Below, one piece after another: positions 651 to 29,072 of a stretch of DNA of 32,000 bases. The translations under genes and the position numbers were made by a program. Position 1 is the first letter of the stretch. Every line of letters begins with the position of its first letter. Source of the DNA: Candidatus Saccharimonadota bacterium (GTDB lineage: Bacteria; Patescibacteriota; Gracilibacteria; BD1-5; UBA2023). The notes beneath the pieces are model-generated. The model made no database searches, was not told the origin of the DNA, and worked only from the letters and a program-made list of their open reading frames with translations. Location of the stretch: positions 840,001 to 872,000 of the forward strand of contig OY970170.1 in assembly GCA_963706795.1 (NCBI GenBank), read 5' to 3'.

Positions 651-1163
651 TTAAGCCAAGCTTTTAATCCACTTAGTCAGGCCTTCTTCGCTGAGCTCGA
701 GTCTATTTAAAAAATCCTTGTCCATAATACTGAGTCCTATAACTTTGGAGTGTTTCTCTAAAAAAGAATCATGATCCTGGATAAGCTCGGGAAGTCTTTT
801 GAGAGATTCGGTGTAGCCTTTTGCTTCATAGAGTTCTCTAAGAAGGGTCTCGCTCAGATCGAGACTGATTACAAATATGCGATAGTTGTGGGGCTCCAGC
901 CATCATTGCATTTTAGCCCATTCACGATCGACACTGGCATCAAAAATAAAGGACTTTTTGGACTCAATAAGTTCGAGGCAGCGGGCATTTCGCCGAGAAA
1001 TATACTCATCCTCTCTGAATTCACGAAAATCTTCTATAATTTCGGATCGCAGAGCATCGTTATTAAAAATCGGAAGTCCGAATTTGTAGCTCAAATAGGT
1101 TGCAATGGGAGTCTTCGAACTTCCAATGCATCCGGCGAATGTTACGCAGATAGGAGTATTCAT
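651..1163 (-). CDS. P-loop NTPase / small kinase-like protein, 170 aa
   Basis: N-terminal Walker A-like FAGCIGSSKT. Track ORF 903..1163 continues in frame through TGA 903-905 to TAA 651-653. Lies 47 nt downstream of the PheRS stop. Confidence 0.6.
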
Positions 1164-1209: not shown

Positions 1210-2469
1210 CTACCTCACTTCGTATCCCAAATTGCCTCCTATTCTTTCGCGGATATCAAAATACATGGCATTGATTTCTTCATTGGTCAGGGTTCTCTCA
1301 ATGGAACGGAATACGATTTTGATACTGAGAGATTTTTTGTCGGATCAGAATTTTGCGTCGTCTTCGTAAATGTCGGTGATTTTTACTTCTTCGATGAGAT
1401 CATCGCCTATGTCGCGGATTACTCAGGTTATGGCAAAGAAATTGGATTCGGTATCGCGAGTAAGCTCGAATTCTCCGGACTTCTCTTCTTCTTTGGTGTC
1501 TTTTTGAAATTGCGATTTGGGGACAATCATAGAGATTTCTTTGTAGACAGGAGGGAATGAACTGACTTCTTTGTAGGGCTCAAAATTGCCCCATTGTTTG
1601 GTAATGCGTGCGTCTTCGCTCCAGAAAATACGGATGTCTGAGATCTCCTTCATTGCCATTGCGAGCCGCTCGAGTCCAAATCAAAACGCCCAGCCGTTAT
1701 ATTTTGCTGGATCGACGCTGAGCTTTTCGAGGACAGTTGGGTGGATGACGCCTGCTCCAGTGACTTCGAGCCATTTGCCGCGATAGAGAACTTCTACCTC
1801 GAGACTGTCGGTTGTATATGGGAACGAATCTTCATTAAATCGGTATTCGATATTCTCACCAAATAGCGCTTTGATCGTATTTGCAAGAACCTCTTTGAGG
1901 GTCGATCCATCAATGATTTCTTGGTTTTTTTCACAGATACGAAATCCATCAATCTGATGGAAACATTCATGATGACTCTTATCGAGCTCATCAACACGAT
2001 ATACTTTACCCCAAGAAAGTGCTCTTAGATCGCCAATTTGATGAAGTTTTTCGAGTCCACCATTCTCTAAAAGATAGTAATACCACATCACGGAAGTATG
2101 CGGACGTAGCAGTATGCTCTTGCGATGATCGCTCGATTTCTCTAAAAAGTAACTGTCGCTCGGACGTCGTGCGACATGATTTTCTGGGAAATTAAAGAGA
2201 TCGAATGTCTCCCACTCACTCACGATTTCCGGTGCACTCACATGGTTGAATCCCCCATAAAAAGGTGAATCCACGAGCTTTTTAATGAGCATAGCGAGTG
2301 GGTGTACAGGATTTTTTGTGAGATCTGGCATATCAATAACGCGCAGCATACGCTTGATATAGGCAATTTCTGTTTCTGATAGATCATCATGATCGAGTCG
2401 CTGCTCCAATTTGTGCATCCACAGGACATCTTGTTCGGAGAATGATCGTTCCTTATTTATCGTGTTCAT
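1210..2469 (-). CDS. pheS: phenylalanine--tRNA ligase, single-chain (mitochondrial-type) form: alpha-like catalytic core fused to an FDX-ACB-like anticodon-binding domain, 419 aa
   Basis: Track ORFs 1681..2469 and 1423..1659 plus a third segment join in one frame through three TGAs. Class II core motifs are present (LRPHTS, FPYTTDSLEVEV, GAGVIHPTVL, GWAF-[UGA=G]-LERLAM). The C-terminal 150 aa (DIRIFWSEDARITKQW..SSFPPVYKEIS..KSLSIKIVFRSIERTLTNEEIN) has the FDX-ACB pattern. Ends TAG 1210-1212. Confidence 0.85.
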
Positions 2470-2488: not shown

Positions 2489-2528
2489 AAAAAATCCCCC
2501 TCGATTACTCGAAGGGGAAGGTTTTTTT
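2489..2528 (-). terminator. intrinsic terminator-like hairpin with a GUAA loop and flanking A/T runs
   Basis: On the minus strand: CCCCUUCGA-GUAA-UCGAGGGG followed by a U-run. Lies between the 2730..3008 gene and the pheS start. Confidence 0.5.
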
Positions 2529-6737: not shown

Positions 6738-7955
6738 ATGTATGAGAGCGGCAGAATGGAATCTTTTGGAATCGAAGCAGGATTATCTAGAATACTGCAA
6801 GTTTATATGTCAACCATCACGAAGATGCGCACTAGTAGCATCAAGGGTACTGCAATGGCCTGATTGATTAGTCTATACTTAGCCTGACCAAATGCGTCAT
6901 CTGCAAAAGAGGGTGCATCCAATGCATCAAGGAAGGTGTCTGTCGCAAAAGAAAATATATCTGCGTGTCTCAGTGGGGAGAGTCTTGCGCGAGCAGCCAA
7001 TCATGGACTCGCTGGACTTGTTAAAGCAACACAACTGTCCGAACAGTGCAAACCCTCTGCTACAAAGAAGGATTTCTGGGAACTTCTTATACGAATATCC
7101 AAGCGTAGTCTGCCAGAGCTCACAATTCCGCTAGAAAGGGCCTGGTGAGACCAAGAATCATACCACCAGGTTATGAATTTCTTTTTTGATAGTGGATATT
7201 TTCTCAATCCAGATAGCAAAACTATTACAAAAATAGACGAAAAGATCGATGTTCCTGCAATTGTTCCTGAATTATCTTGTTTGTTTTGAGGAAATGAACC
7301 ACTTCAATTCGCGAGATTATCACGCATACAGAAGGGGTGAAACCTGCGACAAAGATGAGTGGTACTTGGTTCGGTATGAGCAGTAGCCACTGCTTCGCTA
7401 AAGGAAGTATACAACCGAATATACAGTGATTCATCTCATTCTTATGAGGAGATAGCGAGATGAGTTGTTGCGCATGAGGCTACGCATTCAATTTTGGCGG
7501 CTTATTTTGGCTTCTTTAATACGACTCATCTCTATCGAGATCTTCCTGATGTGACTCAATCGGATATTCACGAGTATCTGGGTTATGCTGGTTGATATTG
7601 TGTAAACGATCATTCAACTGAGGCGATGCTCATAGGTATGCTCAGAGAGATTAAATTCGATTGAAACGTACTGAGTACCGGCAAGGTAACCAACGCAAAC
7701 TATAGATATAGCCACAGTGCTCTGCTCTGACTTATCTCTCGAACGTCACGATTCTCAGAAATATCCAAGATCTTCGTAGAACAATACAATGCAAATAATA
7801 TCAATGGTCGTCCCATAGATATTTTTGAAGACACCGGCCGTCTGACTCGAACAAAAGCGATCATGTGACTTCTAACGATGGAAGATAGAGAAATGATCCG
7901 AAAGGCATTTATTAAAAAGGGAAAAGAGCTTTTGTGAGAAATTTGAGAGAAGTAG
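6738..7955 (+). CDS. hypothetical protein with an HExxH (HEATH) zinc-metallopeptidase-like motif, about 405 aa
   Basis: A 406-codon frame has no TAA/TAG in AT-rich DNA but about 14 in-frame TGAs. VVAHEATHSILAAYFG lies near codon 245. The opposite-strand track ORFs (6803..7434) are short and low-complexity. The start codon is uncertain (ATGs at 6738, 6756, 6807, 6825, 6855). Confidence 0.6.
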
Positions 7956-8230: not shown

Positions 8231-10495
8231 TTATTCGTCCGTCGATCTTTCTGCTAGAAATAGACATTTTCCAAGGATAGTCAGCATTAGCTCACGTTGC
8301 TTCTGTGCTGTTACGGCTGTTGGGAAATATTCTAAGATAGCATCAGTGGTAATTGAATCTTCGATAATCGAGCGTGTACCTTGATTATCGAAGATAGAAT
8401 CAATCTCATTTACTAATAGTACAAAGTCATTCCGTATGTGACTGGCGAATTCGGGGTTTGCTAGCACGAGGCTATCAAAACGCTCTTTAAGGGTTGAAAT
8501 TAACATATTTGCCATCTCTTCCAATTGGGCGGTATCGCCGAGCTCTTTGACAGCCAAAAGCCATAGACAATAGTATTTGGCAATGCCAATATGGGTTCAA
8601 TGCCTTTTCAAGTACTTCTCCCGAAGATATTTTTCAAGTATGGCTTTTGATCGGTCGAATATTTCTGTGTTCCCAGTTTTTAATCCATATAGCCCAAGGA
8701 ATCATAGAACGTCGAAGATATGTAGATTGGCATAATAGTCAGATAGCATCTCGGACGTTCCATTTCATATCACGACTGAGAGTAAACCAAGAACTTTTCG
8801 TATGTAATCTATGGCATTTGGTGTCAATGGGCTTCATCGAGATACCCTATAAGTGATTTCACCAAAATGCTTAACAATCAACGGCAAAAAGCTATCGAAC
8901 TCAATTCACTGTTTCGATCACTCCTTGAAGACCTCGGTGACGATGTCGATGGTATTTCTCAATCAGTTGAAATAAACGGTTTGTAGTGGGCTTGAATCGC
9001 CAGATAGAACTGTCCAGATAACCCCTCTATTCATTGAAAGATTAGTCCACAAAGCTTGTATGAGTTTGTTTAGGAATGCAGATGGGTCTACGCCTCGCTC
9101 TTTTGCTGATGTTATGAGCAAAAGATGGCTTTTTAGGGATTCCCATAAGATTCTATCGTAACCCCATAGGTCTGTTGTTGCTAGCTTCAGAATAAGTCCA
9201 ACGTAGACCTTGTGTATTTCCAGCGATGTCTTACCCGTTTTAATCTCCCAAGCTACAAGGAATGTTAACTTATCCAATAAGGTGTCTATATGCCCTAGGT
9301 TAACCTTTTTCGATATGAGTAAATTAATGAGCACTGCAGCATTCTCTTTCCACTGAAATAGTCATTCTTCGTTTCAGATTACTAGTAGTTTTTCGAACAA
9401 TCCAGCATACCTCATTAGCGCGTTCTCTAGGATGGGATTTGAATTCGGGAATATAGTTCCGGAATAGCGCACTTCAAACAGCTTATCCAGTGCGATTCTG
9501 TATAGTTTGAGACTTTCCAGTATGGCGTATACGTCACCCCTCTTAGCGTTTGAAAGTGCCAGATCTTCAAGCCTCTCGAAAAATCGGCTCAATAATCAAT
9601 CAATTTCAGAATCGTGGCTTCAGAGATAGTCTAGGTTGGGAATTAGTTTTATCTTTCAGTAAGCATCCATTAGATGGCAGAAGCACCTGCCGATGAGTCT
9701 TATATAATCCCTTGCAAGTGTGTATTCTTGAATGCCAATAAGTTTTTGCGTTCAATCAAATATGGATTCTAGCTTGTACCATCACGTATTGATGATTCTA
9801 TCTCAGTAACTTATCGGATCGAAAGATTGTTTATCGATGTCGGGTGTATTGAGGTACTGGACAAGGGATTTTTCATACTTGCTCAACGTCCGAATTATCC
9901 GAACGAAATATTCTTCTGCATCAGTAATTATTCAATGCGGTGATAGTTTCTGACTCGTGTTGTAAAAGGAGAAGAGGACTAGCCAGATTACGAATGATTC
10001 AACTCAGATAGATAGGGGTAGTAATATTCGATCTGGGCAAGCATTTAGAAAAAGAAAGTTATTGCCTCATAGAAAGAGGAATATCAACGTGAATATTCCT
10101 ATCGTCCCAGCTACATAATAGGTCTTTTTGTCGTTATTTGCATCAAAGATAACCGCTAGTGGCGCATAAGTTGCGAAACTTTGGATATAGAAAAAATGGA
10201 TGGTCAGAAGAAGTGCTAATATTGATCAGAACATTGAGCCTACCGTGGTGAAGTAGGCTGAAACATCTATCATATGGAAAAAATTGCGCCAAACCGAAAG
10301 TCCAATCAATAATAACGTCGTTAAAAATTGAATGAGTGTTAGAAATCTAAATCAGTTCTCAAATATGGAAGATATCAGCAGTTTAATTTGAAACCACTTA
10401 GTCCTTGTTTTGTTCCAAAGATCAACTTTAATAACTACTGTGTTAGCTTTGTGTTTCTGGTAGAAATTCACAACATCTTTGATGTATTTGCGCAT
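8231..10495 (-). CDS. large orphan membrane protein, 754 aa: about 4 N-terminal TM helices plus a roughly 560-aa alpha-helical soluble domain
   Basis: A single 755-codon frame from ATG 10495 to TAA 8231, with about 20 in-frame TGAs. It unites track ORFs 8231..8557, 8963..9334 and 9374..9592, all in the same frame. Hydrophobic segments: FLTLIQFLTTLLLIGLSVW, VGSMFGSILALLLTIHFFYI, YYVAGTIGIFTLIFLFLGG, ESFVIWLVLFSF. Confidence 0.7.
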
Positions 10496-11850: not shown

Positions 11851-13737
11851 ATGGTGAATTCAAAAAAGTTTTCACAAACTACTCAAACTCCAATCTTTGC
11901 CTACCTTCGTAGGAGTACAAAAAAGGCTGAGCAGGAAAACTCTCTCATTCAGCAAGAAGATGGTATTCAAAGCCTCATCAGAAGGTTGGGTCTTGATGCT
12001 GATTCTGTGCGCTATTTTGCTGAAAGCCGGAGCGGATTTGAGAATAAGAAACGTCCAGAATGGACGGCGATGATGAGCGAGATTGATAAACTTGAAACAC
12101 CGTGCGTACTATTAGCACGTGATATTTCTCGTCTTTCTCGCAATCCTACGGATTCTCAGAAGATAATGGATCGACTCTATGGGGATAACAAGAAAAGACG
12201 GGTAATCGAGAAAATGTATTGTCTCGATTATGAAAATGTCAAAGAGTGGAATAAGGGTACAGATAAAGAAGAGGTGCACAGGGCTCTTTCTGCAAGCTAC
12301 TATGACAGCTTGGAGACTCGCAGGAAATCTATAGGTGGAATCCTTTTGCGACTAGAAGACGACCAGTTTCCATATGCCGCTCCAAAGGGACTTGATAAAA
12401 TCTCTCATCTCTGAAAAACCATTCTGAAACAGAATGAAAAAATGCCAATCGTCAGAAGAGCATTTGAAATGAAGACGGAGGGAAAGAGTCATAAAGAGAT
12501 ATCCAAATATCTTAAACAGTATGGGGATATCCGTATTTGAGATAGGACGTTAACGGATAGGTTATTCACCTACGAAGTTTATATTGGTAAATATACCGAG
12601 AAAAATACTGGAAAGCGCGTCACGAGCTTGGCATTTTTCGAAGGAAGACCACCCATTTCTCCTGAGTTATGGGATAGGGTACAAAAATGCTTAGGGAAGA
12701 AGAATTCTCAGTATTGAGAGGGGCAAAAAGATGATGTTATTGCTGAAAAGCTGAGAACTGAAAGTGGTAAGCGTATGTCTAAGTATTTCGCTAAGTGAAA
12801 GTATGCCCAGTACAAGAACACGATGGAGAAAATACACATAGCGGAAAAGGAAATCTTGAATCATTTTCAAAATACGCTTATTGAATTCCTTAATGATGCT
12901 TGGAAAAGGAATAGAAAGAAGGTGCGACGAAATATCAAATCCAGCTTCGAGTCATTATGTTTGGAAGAGGGATTGAAAGTTGTAGATAAGCCTGAGTGGA
13001 TAGCTTTCTTTCGTGAAGAGATTGAAATTAAATCGTCTTCACATTTGGAAAAACTCATAATATTGATTTGAAAAAATTCCTTGGAACGAAAGACAAAGAA
13101 TGATCCCTATCCCACCAAAGAAGAGTGTCTTGAGGCATCTAATAGCCTATGAATTGATCTGTGAGGAAGGGGACTCAAAGAGTACATCGAATATGAAGTA
13201 TGAAAAAGGCATATTGATGAGTTTGTGAACGCGGTAAAGAAAGAATTCAAGGAAAAAACCAAGGATTCTCGCAATATAATCGAGGATCAGTTGGTGGAAT
13301 TGCGCAAAAGAAAGGTTGGACTTGAAGAAGAAAGGAAGAGTTATAGAAAGAAAGCCCCAATAATGGGCTATTCGTTTGAAGAAATTAAAGAGACTACCGA
13401 AGAATACGATACCAATATTTCCCTGCTTGATTCAGAGATAGCAGAAGTGTCGCAGTCTACCCATATGGATAAATACTTAGAGCGGATTCCAGAAATATTG
13501 TGTTCGACTTTCGAACTCGCCAATTCTACCCTTACGGAAGCGGAGAAAGGTGAAAAGAAGGAAAATTTACTGAAGCTACTGGAATTAACCACTTTCGAAC
13601 TCACTGTAAACGACAAAAAAGAGCTTAAAGTAAAGCTCTTTGATGTACTAGATAGGCTAGTTTCCGATGATAAGTCACTATTGGAGGCACCACCCGGAGT
13701 CGAACCGGGCTACGGAGCTTTGCAGGCCCCTGCATAA
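11851..13737 (+). CDS. large serine recombinase (integrase), 628 aa
   Basis: N-terminal resolvase catalytic motifs are present (FAYLRRSTKKAEQENSLIQQ and DISRLSRN). A recombinase-domain region follows (PIVRRAFEMKTEGKSHKEISKYL.., ISPELWDRVQ), then a long coiled-coil-like Glu/Lys-rich C-terminus. Track ORFs 11851..12414, 12823..13071 and 13225..13737 share one frame joined by 8 TGAs. TAA stop at 13735-13737. Confidence 0.85.
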
Positions 13738-13755
13738 CCGATCTGCCATGGCGCC
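13682..13755 (-). tRNA. tRNA-Cys: tRNA-Cys (anticodon GCA), 74 nt, CCA encoded
   Basis: GGCGCCA-UG-GCA..UGC-A-GGGGC-CUGCAAA-GCUCC-GUAG-CCCGG-UUCGACU-CCGGG-UGGUGCC-U-CCA. Manual cloverleaf gives a 7-bp acceptor (one G.U), a 5-bp anticodon stem, a 5-bp T stem and a canonical UUCGA T-loop. Confidence 0.9.
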
Positions 13756-16238: not shown

Positions 16239-16310
16239 AGTAATTCCTTGGGCGGGCTCGTACTTTCTAGTAATATGGCCAAAATCATCATACATTCCTT
16301 ACTAATACAC

Positions 16311-17990
16311 ATGAAACGATTGTTTGCAATCCTTGCTACCCTCACACTTGTAGCGAATTCGACGGGAGCACTCTATGCAGCAGATGCGGTTTCGGCTACA
16401 GATACAGACCATCTTGAGGTCACTGCGGTTGCAACAACCAATGTTGGAGAAGCTATCGACCTCACAGTCAAGGCAGTTGCCAAGGACGGATCAGTCGTAA
16501 AGGGCTACCTCGGAACAGTCTTTGTAATTGTCGACAATGACAACAAGGCAAAGGTTCCATACTCTGAAGGCTACACATTTACTGCTGCTGATCAGGGTCA
16601 GAAGACCTTCTCAAAGGGGCTCTCATTTACAAAGGAAGGAACATTTAAGGTAGTAGTTTCGGACTTTGATAAGCCAAAGATCGAAGGAAATGCAAAAGTG
16701 AAGGTTGGCGCAGGAGATGCACCAGCGGCAACAAGCAGTGGAGAACTCGTAACAATTACTTCTCCAGATGCTGGATCAACTGTTGGTAGCAAAGATCTCT
16801 CAGTAACTGGAACTACTAAAAAGAACTCAAAAGTACAGCTCTTCCTCAATGGAGCAAAGGCACTCGAGACACAGACAGATGATAAGGGAAGCTTTGTATT
16901 CCAGCTCAAGAATGTGGATCAGACAGACAATATTCTCTCAGTAAAAGTCCTCGATGGATCTGACAAAGTTATTGGTGAATCCGCTAAAACAAGTGTAAAG
17001 GTTGGATCAGAAGGACCAGCATTTACATCTATTACACTTACTGGCGGAGCTCTCAAGGATGCAACTGCTAAGGATACATATACTGCCGCTCCAGGTGCAA
17101 AGATTAAGGTATCCGTTGCCGCAGAAATCGGTCTCAAGGAAGTAACGGTTGCTATCGGTGAAACGGTAGAAGTCCTCAAGGAAGGTCTTCCTGGTACATA
17201 TGATGGTGAAATCAGTGCTCCAATGACTCCAGGAGTATCGCCACTCGATGTAAATCTCAAGAATTCTCTCGGAAAATCTACTCTCAAGTCTGCAGCCGCT
17301 AATGTAAATGTACAAGCTCTCGCTGTTGCATTTAAAAACGTTAAGGTTGAAAAGGGTGACAAGAAGGCAACATTTACATTCGATGTAGAAAATGAGCCAG
17401 CAGAAGTTGCAAAATTCCAATTCGACTATGCAACTGCTTCGGGTGCTGCGCAAAAGTCAGTAACCTTTGATAAGGCAAAGATCAAGACAGCAAGTGGTTC
17501 ATATAGCTGGTATGTTACAGGGCTTGATATTGCGAAATATGATTTCCAGATCTCTGGGATAGACGCAACTGGCAAGATCCTCACTGGAGCAACTTCTGAA
17601 TCTATTGAGGTTGATATGACTCTCGGATCAGCTCAGAGATGTATGATCTCAAACGTGAGTGGTATGAAGGTATCAACTGCTAAGGATGCAAGTACTCTCA
17701 GCTGGACATCAATTCCTGAGGCTATTGCTTACAACGTCTATAAAAAGGACGCAACTGGTCAGCTCGTATTTATCGAAGCGGTAAAGGCAAACAACTATGT
17801 TGTAAATCTCGCAGCTGGACCAGTTAAATATGATGACTTCGCAGTAAAGGCAGTATGTGCCGATGCTTCAGAGTCTAAGGACTTCTCGCCAACAACTCGT
17901 GTAAAAACGGGGCCTGCGCAGATATTCCTCATGCTCGCGCTCTCACTCGGTCTTGGATTTATCTTTATCCGCCGCAAGAAGCTCATCTAG
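16311..17990 (+). CDS. secreted cell-surface protein with Ig-like repeats and a C-terminal VKTGP + TM + basic-tail anchor, 559 aa
   Basis: Signal peptide MKRLFAILATLTLVANSTGALYA. The sequence is beta-rich and repeat-like throughout. C-terminus is ..TRVKTGPAQIFLMLALSLGLGFIFIRRKKLI. TAG stop, no in-frame TGA. Confidence 0.75.
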   Translation: MKRLFAILATLTLVANSTGALYAADAVSATDTDHLEVTAVATTNVGEAIDLTVKAVAKDGSVVKGYLGTVFVIVDNDNKAKVPYSEGYTFTAADQGQKTFSKGLSFTKEGTFKVVVSDFDKPKIEGNAKVKVGAGDAPAATSSGELVTITSPDAGSTVGSKDLSVTGTTKKNSKVQLFLNGAKALETQTDDKGSFVFQLKNVDQTDNILSVKVLDGSDKVIGESAKTSVKVGSEGPAFTSITLTGGALKDATAKDTYTAAPGAKIKVSVAAEIGLKEVTVAIGETVEVLKEGLPGTYDGEISAPMTPGVSPLDVNLKNSLGKSTLKSAAANVNVQALAVAFKNVKVEKGDKKATFTFDVENEPAEVAKFQFDYATASGAAQKSVTFDKAKIKTASGSYSWYVTGLDIAKYDFQISGIDATGKILTGATSESIEVDMTLGSAQRCMISNVSGMKVSTAKDASTLSWTSIPEAIAYNVYKKDATGQLVFIEAVKANNYVVNLAAGPVKYDDFAVKAVCADASESKDFSPTTRVKTGPAQIFLMLALSLGLGFIFIRRKKLI

Positions 17991-18185: not shown

Positions 18186-18614
18186 ATGCCAGTAACTCAG
18201 TCTGCAAAGAAAGCTCATCGTCAGAGCCTTACTAAGCGATCACGCAATCGTCACTTCACTGCGCTTTACCGCGAAGTTCTCAAGAAATATGAGAAGGCTC
18301 TTGCCGGAAAGATCGATGACGCAGCAGCTATCCTCCACGAGGTATATTCTGCAATCGACACTCTTGTAAAAAAGAATGTTCTCCACAAAAACAACGGTGC
18401 CCGCAAAAAGAGTCAGGCTGCAAAGCTTCTCGCTCGTAGTGGTGTTGCCTCTACTTCAGCTCCAGTTGCCAAGAAGGCTGCTCCAGCAAAAAAAGCTGCT
18501 GCTCCAAAGGTAAAGGCTGAAACTGCCGAAGCTCCTGCAAAGAAGCCTGCTGCCAAGAAGGCTCCAGCTGCTAAAAAGGAAGCGAAGCCAGCTTCTCCTA
18601 AGAAGACGAAATAA
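18186..18614 (+). CDS. rpsT: 30S ribosomal protein S20 with an Ala/Lys/Pro-rich C-terminal extension, 142 aa
   Basis: MPVTQSAKKAHRQSLTKRSRNRH...HKNNGARKKSQ is the S20 pattern. About 55 extra residues follow, of the type APAKKAAAPKVKAETAEAPAKKPAAKKAPAAKKEAKPASPKKTK. Confidence 0.85.
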   Translation: MPVTQSAKKAHRQSLTKRSRNRHFTALYREVLKKYEKALAGKIDDAAAILHEVYSAIDTLVKKNVLHKNNGARKKSQAAKLLARSGVASTSAPVAKKAAPAKKAAAPKVKAETAEAPAKKPAAKKAPAAKKEAKPASPKKTK

Positions 18615-19129
18615 TGGCAGGAAAAGGCAAGCGCATCAACGCTGAAATTAAAGTAGCGGAAGTCGCCGTCATTTCTGATTCAGGAGAGTCGCTCTGAACA
18701 ATCCCCACAGAAGTTGCCCTCGAAAAGGCAGCCGAAATGGAAATGGATCTCGTCGAGATCGGTATTCAGAACGGAGTGGTTCTCGCGAAGATTATGGATT
18801 ATGGGAAATTTCTCTTCAAACAGCAGAAAAATCTCGCCCATGGTCGCCAGTCTTCCAAGAAAGCAGACGTAAAGACGCTCAAGATCACATACAAGATCGG
18901 TGATCATGATCTCGATATTCGCCGAACGCAGGCAAAGAAATTTGCAGCACTTGGCCATCCACTCAAGATCATGCTTACTCTCCGTGGTCGAGAAAATCAA
19001 TACGCAGCTCTTGCACAAGCAAAGATGAAGGAATTCATCGGTTCACTTGGTGAGTTCTACAAGACAGACGCGATTCAGGTATCAAAAACAGGAAACAACT
19101 TTTCTACACTCATTTATCCGAAAAAGTAA
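18614..19129 (+). CDS. infC: translation initiation factor IF-3, 171 aa
   Basis: RINAEIKVAEVAVISDSGESL[G]..MDLVEIG..AKIMDYGKFLFKQQK..KTLKITYKIGDHDLDIRRTQAKKF. The ATG overlaps the rpsT stop (TAATG). One in-frame TGA at 18695-18697. Confidence 0.9.
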
Positions 19130-19350: not shown

Positions 19351-19695
19351 ATGACACGAGTAAAGCGCGGGCTAGCAAGCCACAAGCGACATAAGAAGAT
19401 CATCGCCAAGGCAAAGGGGTACCGCTTGATGAATGGGAATGTTTTCTCACGAGTTAAGAACGCCGTTGCAAAGGCTGGAATGAATGCGTACATCGACCGC
19501 CGCAACAAGAAGCGAACTTTCCGAGCTCTCTGGCTCGTTCGTATCAACAATGCGGTTCGTCCACTTGGTGTTACGTACTCAGCTTTCATCAACATGCTCT
19601 ACAAAAAGCACGTAAAGCTCGATCGAAAGGCTCTTTCAAACATCGCTATCTCTCACCCTGCGGTATTCGCAAAGGTTGTTGAGTTCGTAAAATAG
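19351..19695 (+). CDS. rplT: 50S ribosomal protein L20
   Basis: MTRVKRGLASHKRHKKIIAKAKGYR..DRRNKKRTFRALWLVRINNA.., 114 aa. Confidence 0.95.
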   Translation: MTRVKRGLASHKRHKKIIAKAKGYRLMNGNVFSRVKNAVAKAGMNAYIDRRNKKRTFRALWLVRINNAVRPLGVTYSAFINMLYKKHVKLDRKALSNIAISHPAVFAKVVEFVK

Positions 19696-26450: not shown

Positions 26451-27227
26451 TTATCGTGCGAGCCGCTTCCTAAAAACTATGAGTGCTCCAACTCCGAGAG
26501 AGAAGAGGATCATGAGAAGTGTCTGGACTGGTCCAGTCTTCACACTCGTTACTTTAGAGGTATTGATCGAAGCTGTCTGCATATCGCCACAGACTGCAGC
26601 TATCTTGAAGTCCTCATATTTTACAGCTCCGCGAGCGAGATATGCTGTATAGATCGGACTCTTTACTCGCTCAATAAATACAAAGTCACCGGATTTTGTT
26701 CGCTTCATAACGTCATATCCGGCTGCACCGGCAACTTCTTTCCAACGAACGACGGTTTTTGTATCTTGCTCCTCAGTTTGGATGATATCAATTGCAGGAA
26801 GTTTACATTCTGGTGCGCTATTGAGCACAGGGGTTGTTGATCCTGCAGTATTGCTTACTGGTTTTGGAGTACTCGTGGTTGTAGTTGTAGCAGTGGGAGT
26901 CTCAGGAGTTTTTGTAGTTGTAACTACAGGTGTTGTTGTTTTTGGAGGAGTAACTACTGGCTTTGGTGGTGTGACTGTTGTTGCAGGAGAAGAAGTCGTA
27001 GGCTTTGGTGTCACAACGGGTGGTTGAGTATTTGAAGTACTCGGAGTTGTTGGAGTGGTTGATCCGGTGCTGGATTCGATAGATTTTGCAAAATCTGCCA
27101 TAAAATCCTCTGCGCTCATTGGAGCGCTTGCGGCACTCGCAAGGAAGAGTACAGAACCCACGAGGAGTGTGGTTCAGGCAGTAACTCCGAGGGCAATGAT
27201 TTCTTTATTTGAAAAACGAGCGCGCAT
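26451..27227 (-). CDS. secreted surface protein with a Thr/Pro-rich linker and a C-terminal VKTGP + TM + basic-tail anchor, 258 aa
   Basis: Start MRARFSNKEIIALGVTA[G]TTLLVGSVLFLASAASA (signal peptide; one in-frame TGA upstream of the track ORF start). About 85 aa of T/P/S/V-rich sequence. C-terminal module is homologous to that of 16311..17990. TAA stop. Confidence 0.75.

Positions 27228-27594: not shown

Positions 27595-29072
<1,478 letters not shown>

Follow-up and report, generated by a model that had tools for sequence, protein, structure and literature searches.

Phenylalanyl-tRNA synthetase (PheRS) has been described in three forms. In prokaryotes it is invariably an (alpha-beta)2 heterotetramer, and the monomeric chimera of a catalytic module (CAM) and a B8 domain is considered unique to mitochondria (PMC3275996). 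The canonical alpha subunit is inactive without beta, whereas the mitochondrial single chain is fully active (PMC3275996), and AARS Online gives FARS2 as the only gene example of PheRS-M (PMC11580382). Here we examined a 32,000-nucleotide stretch (hereafter the window) of a 1.27-Mb Gracilibacteria genome (GCA_963706795.1, contig OY970170.1, positions 840,001 to 872,000), in which one gene encodes a 419-residue protein of this chimeric build. We consider that it probably encodes a functional single-chain PheRS, most likely the housekeeping PheRS of this Gracilibacterium.

Mitochondrial PheRS (FARS2, Msf1, TIGR00469, structures 3CMQ and 3TUP) resembles the window protein in size and in joining a catalytic core to a B8-like FDX-ACB domain; the coiled-coil and the editing domain are missing from both. 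The two also share the ‘GWAFG’ form of motif 3 and a ‘DIR.FWS.D.R’ junction. However, human FARS2 is only ~26-28% identical to the window protein, which has FPY and HQID where mitochondrial PheRS has FPF and HQxE. Unlike its mitochondrial counterpart, the gene is bacterial and chromosomal, reads UGA as Gly, lacks a targeting peptide and carries a 22-residue insertion.

Canonical PheS is 33-34% identical to the core of the window protein (Escherichia coli and Pseudomonas aeruginosa alpha subunits), and motifs 1-3 and the Phe pocket align. It has ~330-350 residues, begins with an N-terminal coiled-coil and ends after motif 3, whereas the 419-residue window protein has no coiled-coil and carries an anticodon-binding domain in cis. 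This C-terminal domain is homologous to B8 of PheT, while the other Pfam domains of PheT (tRNA_bind, B3_4 and B5) are missing, as presumably is its catalytic-like module. A third relative is the ‘mystery ligase’ SrmL (NF051887), which shares the two-domain single-chain architecture and differs in having its own insertion between FDX-ACB strands 2 and 3.

Gene Structure and Genetic Code

The gene is read from the minus strand. Its only internal in-frame stops are three TGAs, at codons 263, 349 and 375 (window positions 1681-1683, 1423-1425 and 1345-1347).

1210..2469, minus strand: single-chain PheRS coding sequence, 419 aa, with ATG at 2469, TAG at 1210-1212 and UGA read as Gly
1681..1683, minus strand: UGA codon 263, Gly, the invariant glycine of motif 3 (GWAF-G-FGLERL)
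1345..1347, minus strand: UGA codon 375, Gly, in the context AKF-G-SDKK

UGA encodes glycine in this gene (genetic code 25). We aligned the codons of the window gene with those of homologs from 34 species genomes (35 genomes in all). Column 263 holds GGT in 12 genomes, GGA in 11, TGA in 10 and GGC in 2. Column 375 holds TGA in 15, GGN in 16 and Ser or Thr codons in 4, and column 349 has TGA in 13 and GGN in 10, the remainder being Ser, Ala or gaps. TGG is absent from all three columns, and no TGA occurs in columns where TGG (Trp) is the majority. Over all UGA-containing columns, the alignment has 351 Gly residues and 0 Trp. Since UGA trades places with GGN but never with TGG in these columns, and since codon 263 falls on the glycine that does not vary in motif 3, UGA is read as Gly and the 419-codon open reading frame (ORF) is therefore intact.

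An earlier note on this DNA had allowed for the three UGAs being true stops, which would leave only a truncated PheS; the locus would then be a 262-residue fragment or a pseudogene. Under translation table 11 the ORF does terminate at codon 263, and a database gene call (P0018) is the same 262-residue fragment. The exchange of UGA with GGN among the 35 genomes, never with TGG or another stop, already refutes truncation, and the sequence past each UGA is in frame, conserved and forms a confident FDX-ACB domain. Table 11 also splits the window into short ORFs, and many long ORFs emerge only with TGA as a sense codon. We thus regard the chance of real stops as negligible. Database copies with Trp at the three UGA sites (P0121) are code-4 gene calls. 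P0121 was the query for the representative search and for structure prediction described below, and it differs from the true protein at 3 of 419 residues.

Domain Architecture and Predicted Fold

The protein consists of a short N-terminal region, a PheS-type core and a B8-like domain, joined by a linker.

2326..2469, minus strand: N-terminal region, aa 1-48, with two predicted helices (12-24 and 32-46); the Pfam core starts at aa 49
1591..2325, minus strand: class II core of PheS type (tRNA-synt_2d), aa 49-293, Pfam E 8e-58
1564..1590, minus strand: inter-domain linker, aa 294-302 (GNFEPYKEV), between the Pfam domains, coil in the model
1213..1563, minus strand: FDX-ACB (PheT B8-like) anticodon-binding domain, aa 303-419, Pfam E 4e-17

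These boundaries and the predicted fold confirm the proposal that one chain combines an alpha-type core with a B8-like FDX-ACB domain, and a Pfam scan of the 419-residue protein found no domain besides these two. Residues 1-48 occupy the place of the long coiled-coil in canonical PheS (AlphaFold secondary structure). The C-terminal domain aligns both to the C-terminal domain of 3CMQ and to B8 of E. coli PheT, with which it has the motifs S-x-P ... D-I-S and R-T-L-T-x-x-E in common, and its TIGR00472 match covers pheT positions 719-798.

From an alignment of 70 family sequences, AlphaFold2 produced a model with a mean predicted local distance difference test (pLDDT) score of 93.5 and a predicted template modelling (pTM) score of 0.89. 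In the FDX-ACB region (pLDDT 86-96) the model is ferredoxin-like, with strand 308-317, helix 338-358, strands 359-368 and 378-387, and helix 396-414. Pfam, the model and the B8 alignment together dispose of the possibility that the C-terminus lacks an FDX-ACB fold.

By sequence, the closest solved structures are those of human mitochondrial PheRS (E ~1e-39), aligned through the C-terminal domain, whereas bacterial alpha subunits align solely to aa ~50-293. Foldseek against the PDB gave the same picture. Ranks 1-7 are all human mitochondrial PheRS, matched at full length over 407-441 aligned columns (E ~3e-30), which bears out the suggestion that size and architecture are organellar rather than those of PheS. 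Template modelling (TM) scores were 0.67-0.73 to six tRNA-free human mitochondrial entries (3CMQ, 5MGx) and 0.51-0.53 to the open tRNA complex 3TUP, with a root mean square deviation (rmsd) of 19.6. PheS alpha cores matched only the core, with TM(target) 0.8-0.86 and TM(query) ~0.5. Foldseek against the viral structures of BFVD returned other class II aminoacyl-tRNA synthetase cores only and no full-length PheRS.

The junction between the domains reads DIRIFWSEDARITKQW ... SSFPPVYKEIS. Its resemblance to FARS2 and Msf1, pointed out in the earlier note, is real: mitochondrial PheRS reads IPDIRLFWS.D.RF..QF ... S.YP....DIS. The first part of the junction is the conserved C-terminal helix of any PheS, and E. 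coli PheS ends DLRSFFENDLRFLKQFK. The ‘FWS.D.R’ junction and ‘GWAFG’ motif 3 variants are common to the single-chain forms of mitochondria, viruses and the Candidate Phyla Radiation (CPR), and SrmL varies both.

Active Site

Three segments of the core carry most of the residues discussed here.

1939..2013, minus strand: motif 2 region, aa 153-177 (WGKVYRVDELDKSHHECFHQIDGFR), with R158 and Q172 invariant
1813..1824, minus strand: aromatic pocket F216-P-Y218-T219, FPFT in PheS and mitochondrial PheRS and HPYT in SrmL
1654..1707, minus strand: motif 3, aa 255-272 (AKYNGWAFGFGLERLAMA), with A261 (the E. coli A294 column), UGA-encoded G263 and R268

The site is that of a class II synthetase of PheRS type, with R158, R268, H124-T-S126, H171-Q172, F216-P-Y218 and A261 conserved. 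Among 70 family members, R101, R122, R158, Q172, P217 and R268 are invariant, and at least 90% of the members retain H98, H124-T125, D174, F216, Y218, T219 and A261-F262. The positions that bind Phe and ATP in Thermus thermophilus and E. coli PheRS correspond to His98 of HxAR, His124-Thr-Ser126, Arg158, His171-Gln172, Phe216-Pro-Tyr218-Thr219, Ala261, Phe262 and Gly263/Gly265/Arg268. In the group alignment these positions are kept in the window protein and its CPR relatives.

The presumed substrate pocket of SrmL is altered at several positions. It has no His in HxAR, HPY with His for Phe216, Ser, Met or Leu for Phe262 (A[S/M/L]G), and Ile or Val for Gly175 (D-[I/V] after HQx). The window protein, in contrast, has HVAR, FPY and AFG.

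Family Distribution and Phylogeny

Against the relevant NCBIfam models the window protein stays under every cut-off. SrmL (NF051887) scores best at 219.1 bits (cut-off 300), followed by pheS_mito (TIGR00469) at 178.7 bits (cut-off 258.35) and pheS (TIGR00468) at 163.5 bits (cut-off 237.45). Among 5.8 billion proteins we found 4441 relatives at E <= 1e-10. The best 120 of these are nearly all 400-460 aa long with both domains, share 54-77% identity with the query and fall into more than 100 clusters; where names exist, these 120 come from ‘Candidatus Gracilibacteria’ or ‘uncultured bacterium (gcode 4)’. Public labels are ‘hypothetical protein’, ‘phenylalanyl-tRNA synthetase alpha chain’ and ‘FDX-ACB domain...’.

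A scan of one genome per species located the gene in 29 metagenome-assembled genomes (MAGs) of Gracilibacteria, Absconditabacteria or SR1 type, at 52-69% identity. Some of these are loosely labelled ‘Peribacteria’, and nearly all have in-frame UGA in the gene. Five further MAGs labelled Paceibacterota, Minisyncoccia or ‘Saccharibacteria’ have homologs at 40-44% identity. All five keep the standard genetic code, and their copies of the gene have 0 UGA. Their compact PheRS (382-390 aa; L028, L030-L033; P0126) belongs to the same clade as the window protein and has the same FPY, HQ[I/M]D and GWAFG. It differs by a shorter N-terminus, by the absence of the 22-residue insertion and by pheS_mito scores nearer the cut-off (231-241 bits). 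In L030 and L033, where the protein has 382 aa and the same two domains, gyrB lies within ~1.5 kb downstream, and no pheT stands beside either gene.

Since standard-code CPR MAGs encode the 382-residue version, the architecture is not confined to this genome and does not depend on recoding. The earlier view of it as the solution of a reduced-genome, recoded bacterium must be given up, as single-chain genes also occur in an Oligoflexia-labelled MAG and on IMG/VR viral contigs (see below).

We built neighbour-joining (NJ) trees with Kimura distances and bootstrapping from ~220 catalytic-core columns. The sequences comprised canonical PheS, eukaryotic mitochondrial PheRS, true SrmL and compact metagenomic forms from the exhaustive cluster-representative search, and 32 viral loci from the IMG/VR scan were added. 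Source names confirmed the mitochondrial set (Msf1 of Schizosaccharomyces, Branchiostoma, Allomyces, Blumeria and Globodera). All single-chain forms separate from canonical PheS at 99-100% bootstrap. The window protein falls in a Patescibacteria clade (95-96%) made up of a Gracilibacteria-type clade (92-100%), the compact CPR-type proteins and P0127, a protein from the Oligoflexia-labelled MAG. It lies outside the SrmL clade (100%) and outside the group of mitochondrial with viral and compact metagenomic forms (76-86%), within which mitochondrial forms alone reach 54%. SrmL and the Patescibacteria clade are sisters at 73-84%. Deep nodes (73-86%) are provisional because they come from a distance method on ~220 columns.

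The window protein is thus ‘mitochondrial-type’ in build, yet provisionally a member of a bacterial sister branch. The label given to it in the earlier note holds for architecture and fold and fails for family, given 178.7 bits against a cut-off of 258 and a separate Patescibacteria clade.

Viral and Non-CPR Single-Chain Genes

Compact genes for a single-chain PheRS occur commonly on IMG/VR viral contigs (L047-L078), most of them >100 kb and up to 520 kb, and a few lie on giant-virus bins (GVMAG), one of 1.47 Mb. Another compact gene lies on LR745206.1 (635 kb) at 613830-614576. On a 340,874-bp scaffold (L036, 10001-11047; ERZ19027398 scaffold_19; P0146/P0275) the gene is flanked by ORFans, an SNF2 helicase, PhageMetallopep and PcfJ, and the encoded compact form passes the pheS_mito cut-off. 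Several compact metagenomic relatives do so, at 260-361 bits, including one on a phage-like scaffold. Viral proteins have the same architecture as the window protein, with alignments reaching residue 419, and differ in length (~320-390 aa) and in identity (30-36%). Once the IMG/VR loci are included in the tree, the viral and compact forms join eukaryotic mitochondrial PheRS at 86% NJ bootstrap.

The frequency of such genes on viral contigs, together with a serine recombinase beside a tRNA gene ~10 kb away in the window, could suggest that the window gene came only recently from a virus or mobile element and is an auxiliary prophage gene rather than a core cellular one. This is very improbable. 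The window protein groups apart from the viral forms, in the 95% Patescibacteria clade, and is only distantly similar to them, while homologs in the 29 species genomes are 52-69% identical and share the insertion and the UGA = Gly code. Nor are the immediate neighbours of the window gene phage-like.

P0127 has 414 aa, keeps FPF and HPAR and belongs to the CPR-type clade (L044, 10001-11245; GCA_019694465.1, JAIBBV010000034.1). Around it lie genes of ordinary metabolism (M20 peptidase, MR/MLE enzymes, beta-lactamase). Either a non-CPR bacterium has gained P0127 as an additional PheRS by horizontal transfer, or the contig was binned wrongly.

Sole PheRS or Accessory Ligase

True SrmL members are Patescibacteria proteins (Nealsonbacteria, Harrisonbacteria and ‘Patescibacteria group’ MAGs), which makes SrmL the rival that matters. 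On that reading the window gene would encode an accessory PheS-related ligase, a paralog with an altered or unknown substrate like SrmL, beside a canonical pheS-pheT pair elsewhere in the genome. Several observations favour it or weigh against a housekeeping PheRS. SrmL is the nearest curated family by model score, and it is also the sister clade. At two pocket positions the window protein departs from PheS and mitochondrial PheRS, each time conservatively: residue 174 is Asp instead of Glu, and residue 218 is Tyr instead of Phe. P0127 is found in a non-CPR MAG; an Oligoflexia-type bacterium is expected to have pheST as well, so paralogous use of the single-chain architecture is possible. In a Gracilibacteria-assigned bin of 43% GC, a protein detected by proteomics carries the KEGG label ‘FARSB, pheT’ (PMC11452946 Table S8). 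Genes in the Gracilibacteria bins of that study were called with code 25 (PMC11452946), so ORF fragmentation alone does not account for the label and the idea of an FDX-ACB fragment is weakened. Moreover, a canonical pheS-pheT pair may lie elsewhere in the 1.27-Mb genome, outside the searched window.

We nevertheless consider the accessory-ligase explanation unlikely. The SrmL score of the window protein is far under the cut-off, whereas true members reach 375.8-441.9 bits; the SrmL clade shuts the protein out at full bootstrap support; and the pocket changes of SrmL are absent, the PheRS pattern being retained. The pocket pattern, the SrmL cut-off and the clade result together argue for reading the window protein as a genuine PheRS and SrmL as the diverged paralog.

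The search for pheT points the same way. When E. coli PheT was compared by tblastn with the window and 34 loci (~10-kb flanks; 581 kb), only the FDX-ACB part of the fused genes was found. In E. coli, pheS-pheT follow infC-rpmI-rplT, whereas in the window no pheST follows infC (18614-19129) and rplT (19351-19695). After rplT come genes for a PAP2-like membrane protein, DedA, a YmdB-like phosphoesterase and an HtrA-like protease (sequence inspection), and then HisRS (Pfam). Because this search covered only the window and flanks out of a 1.27-Mb genome, we infer, rather than observe, that the window protein is both the housekeeping and the sole PheRS, and we hold this to be likely.

The SrmL loci themselves (L040, 6729-7847; L041, 6319-7437; L042, 6644-7759; L039, 934-2067) have different surroundings. 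In one lineage the neighbours are a class I lysyl-tRNA synthetase and two radical-SAM genes. In another they are a class II aminoacyl-tRNA synthetase and polyamine genes (deoxyhypusine synthase, AdoMet and ornithine decarboxylases). The SrmL neighbourhoods examined held no pheST and no functional clue.

Lineage-Specific Insertion

The FDX-ACB domain of the window protein contains an insertion whose existence the alignment supports, although the coordinates first proposed were slightly off and the true span is aa 328-349.

1423..1488, minus strand: 22-aa insertion, aa 328-349 (EEEKSGEFELTRDTESNFFAIT-G), between strand 1 and helix 1, ending in UGA codon 349

Its consensus, KSG-ELEL..E.ES.FFA[IL][TS]G, is conserved among the Gracilibacteria/SR1-type proteins examined, and the model predicts a short helix (325-331) in this region. 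The alignment shows no counterpart of the insertion in P0125, the remaining CPR forms, SrmL, E. coli B8 or the phage and mitochondrial forms. As a matter of speculation, it is a candidate for a lineage-specific tRNA contact.

P0125 (456 aa, 48% identical; L045, 9463-10833; L046, 154-1524) is the closest outgroup of the Gracilibacteria-type proteins. Translating its contig under the standard code does not give the database protein, and P0125 probably comes from another UGA-recoded lineage. If it does, the insertion postdates that split, since P0125 lacks it.

Proposed Mechanism

By homology with mitochondrial PheRS, the PheS-type core would bind Phe and ATP, form Phe-AMP and pass Phe to tRNA-Phe. 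The linker-tethered FDX-ACB domain would read the GAA anticodon, a task that falls to B8 of the beta subunit in canonical bacterial PheRS, and is expected to swing from a closed to an open position for tRNA, as in human mitochondrial PheRS. The model superposes far better on the closed 3CMQ-type form (TM ~0.7) than on open 3TUP (TM 0.51). Because the protein has no B3/B4 editing domain, Tyr-tRNA-Phe would not be proofread in cis. We infer Phe/tRNA-Phe specificity, the monomeric state, the domain motion and the lack of editing from these comparisons.

Genomic Context

A hairpin precedes the gene.

2495..2518, minus strand: strong intrinsic-terminator hairpin with a perfect, G+C-rich 10-bp stem, 6 G-C pairs and a T-run, 25 nt upstream of the ATG

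The hairpin closes the preceding minus-strand transcription unit and, with A-runs flanking it at one end and T-runs at the opposite end, could terminate in both directions. It stands so close to the PheRS start that a promoter or leader would hardly fit in, and no sigma-70-like promoter was found between hairpin and ATG. Neither the downstream neighbour of the PheRS gene (651-1163, minus strand) nor its upstream ORFs have a Pfam match. Beyond these lie a DKNYY-repeat lipoprotein and a beta-lactamase-fold protein.

Elsewhere in the window, an ORFan at 6738-7955 (plus strand) has 14 in-frame UGA codons, and another at 8231-10495 (minus strand), for which Pfam gave no match, has 20. An ORF for a 628-aa large serine recombinase (11851-13755; Pfam Resolvase and Recombinase) runs into a tRNA-Cys gene (13682-13755, minus strand), and an element may have integrated here at the tRNA gene. 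Two secreted-looking proteins (16248-17990, plus strand; 26451-27227, minus strand), with 0 and 1 UGA respectively, have nearly identical C-terminal tails consisting of VKTGP(A/V)Q, ~20 hydrophobic residues and a basic R(R/K)K(K/R)L end. This shared tail looks like a cell-surface sorting signal. A complete 16S ribosomal RNA (rRNA) gene lies at 27596-29071; the remaining 2.9 kb hold no spacer tRNAs or 23S gene, with minus-strand ORFs instead, and the rRNA genes appear unlinked.

Implications

In the literature searched, including SR1/BD1-5 papers (PMC3812714, PMC6851277, PMC8080830), neither a bacterial single-chain PheRS nor SrmL is described. Odd Val, Ala and IleRS genes were noted in SR1, and PheRS was not (PMC3812714). 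The proteins are already in public databases and the neighbouring SrmL family is already curated by NCBI. How surprising the single-chain PheRS is depends on whether pheT is absent.

If confirmed, the finding would explain the ‘hypothetical’ labels given by the NCBI Prokaryotic Genome Annotation Pipeline (PGAP; NCBI-named P0003 and P0008), the window protein scoring below every PheRS cut-off. Marker-gene and completeness estimates of CPR genomes based on pheS and pheT would be affected, and small orthogonal PheRS scaffolds could become available as tools. A bacterial branch relying on a single-chain PheRS would also overturn the generalization that all prokaryotes have the heterotetramer (PMC3275996).

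We put forward a broader possibility tentatively, as one that is more doubtful than probable. Gracilibacteria and Absconditabacteria, and probably other Patescibacteria, may do without PheRS beta and use a single chain that lacks editing, and the ‘mitochondrial’ architecture may be an old bacterial or viral invention from which the organellar enzyme was recruited. Such recruitment, if true, would replace the idea of domain loss and fusion in early eukaryotes, and the nearest relatives of the organellar enzyme here are viral. Mitochondrial RNA polymerase and Twinkle are of phage ancestry, which the sister grouping of mitochondrial and viral PheRS recalls. Bacterial and viral outgroups would then be at hand for the origin of the organellar enzyme, and translation in these episymbionts would proceed without cis-editing of Tyr-tRNA-Phe.

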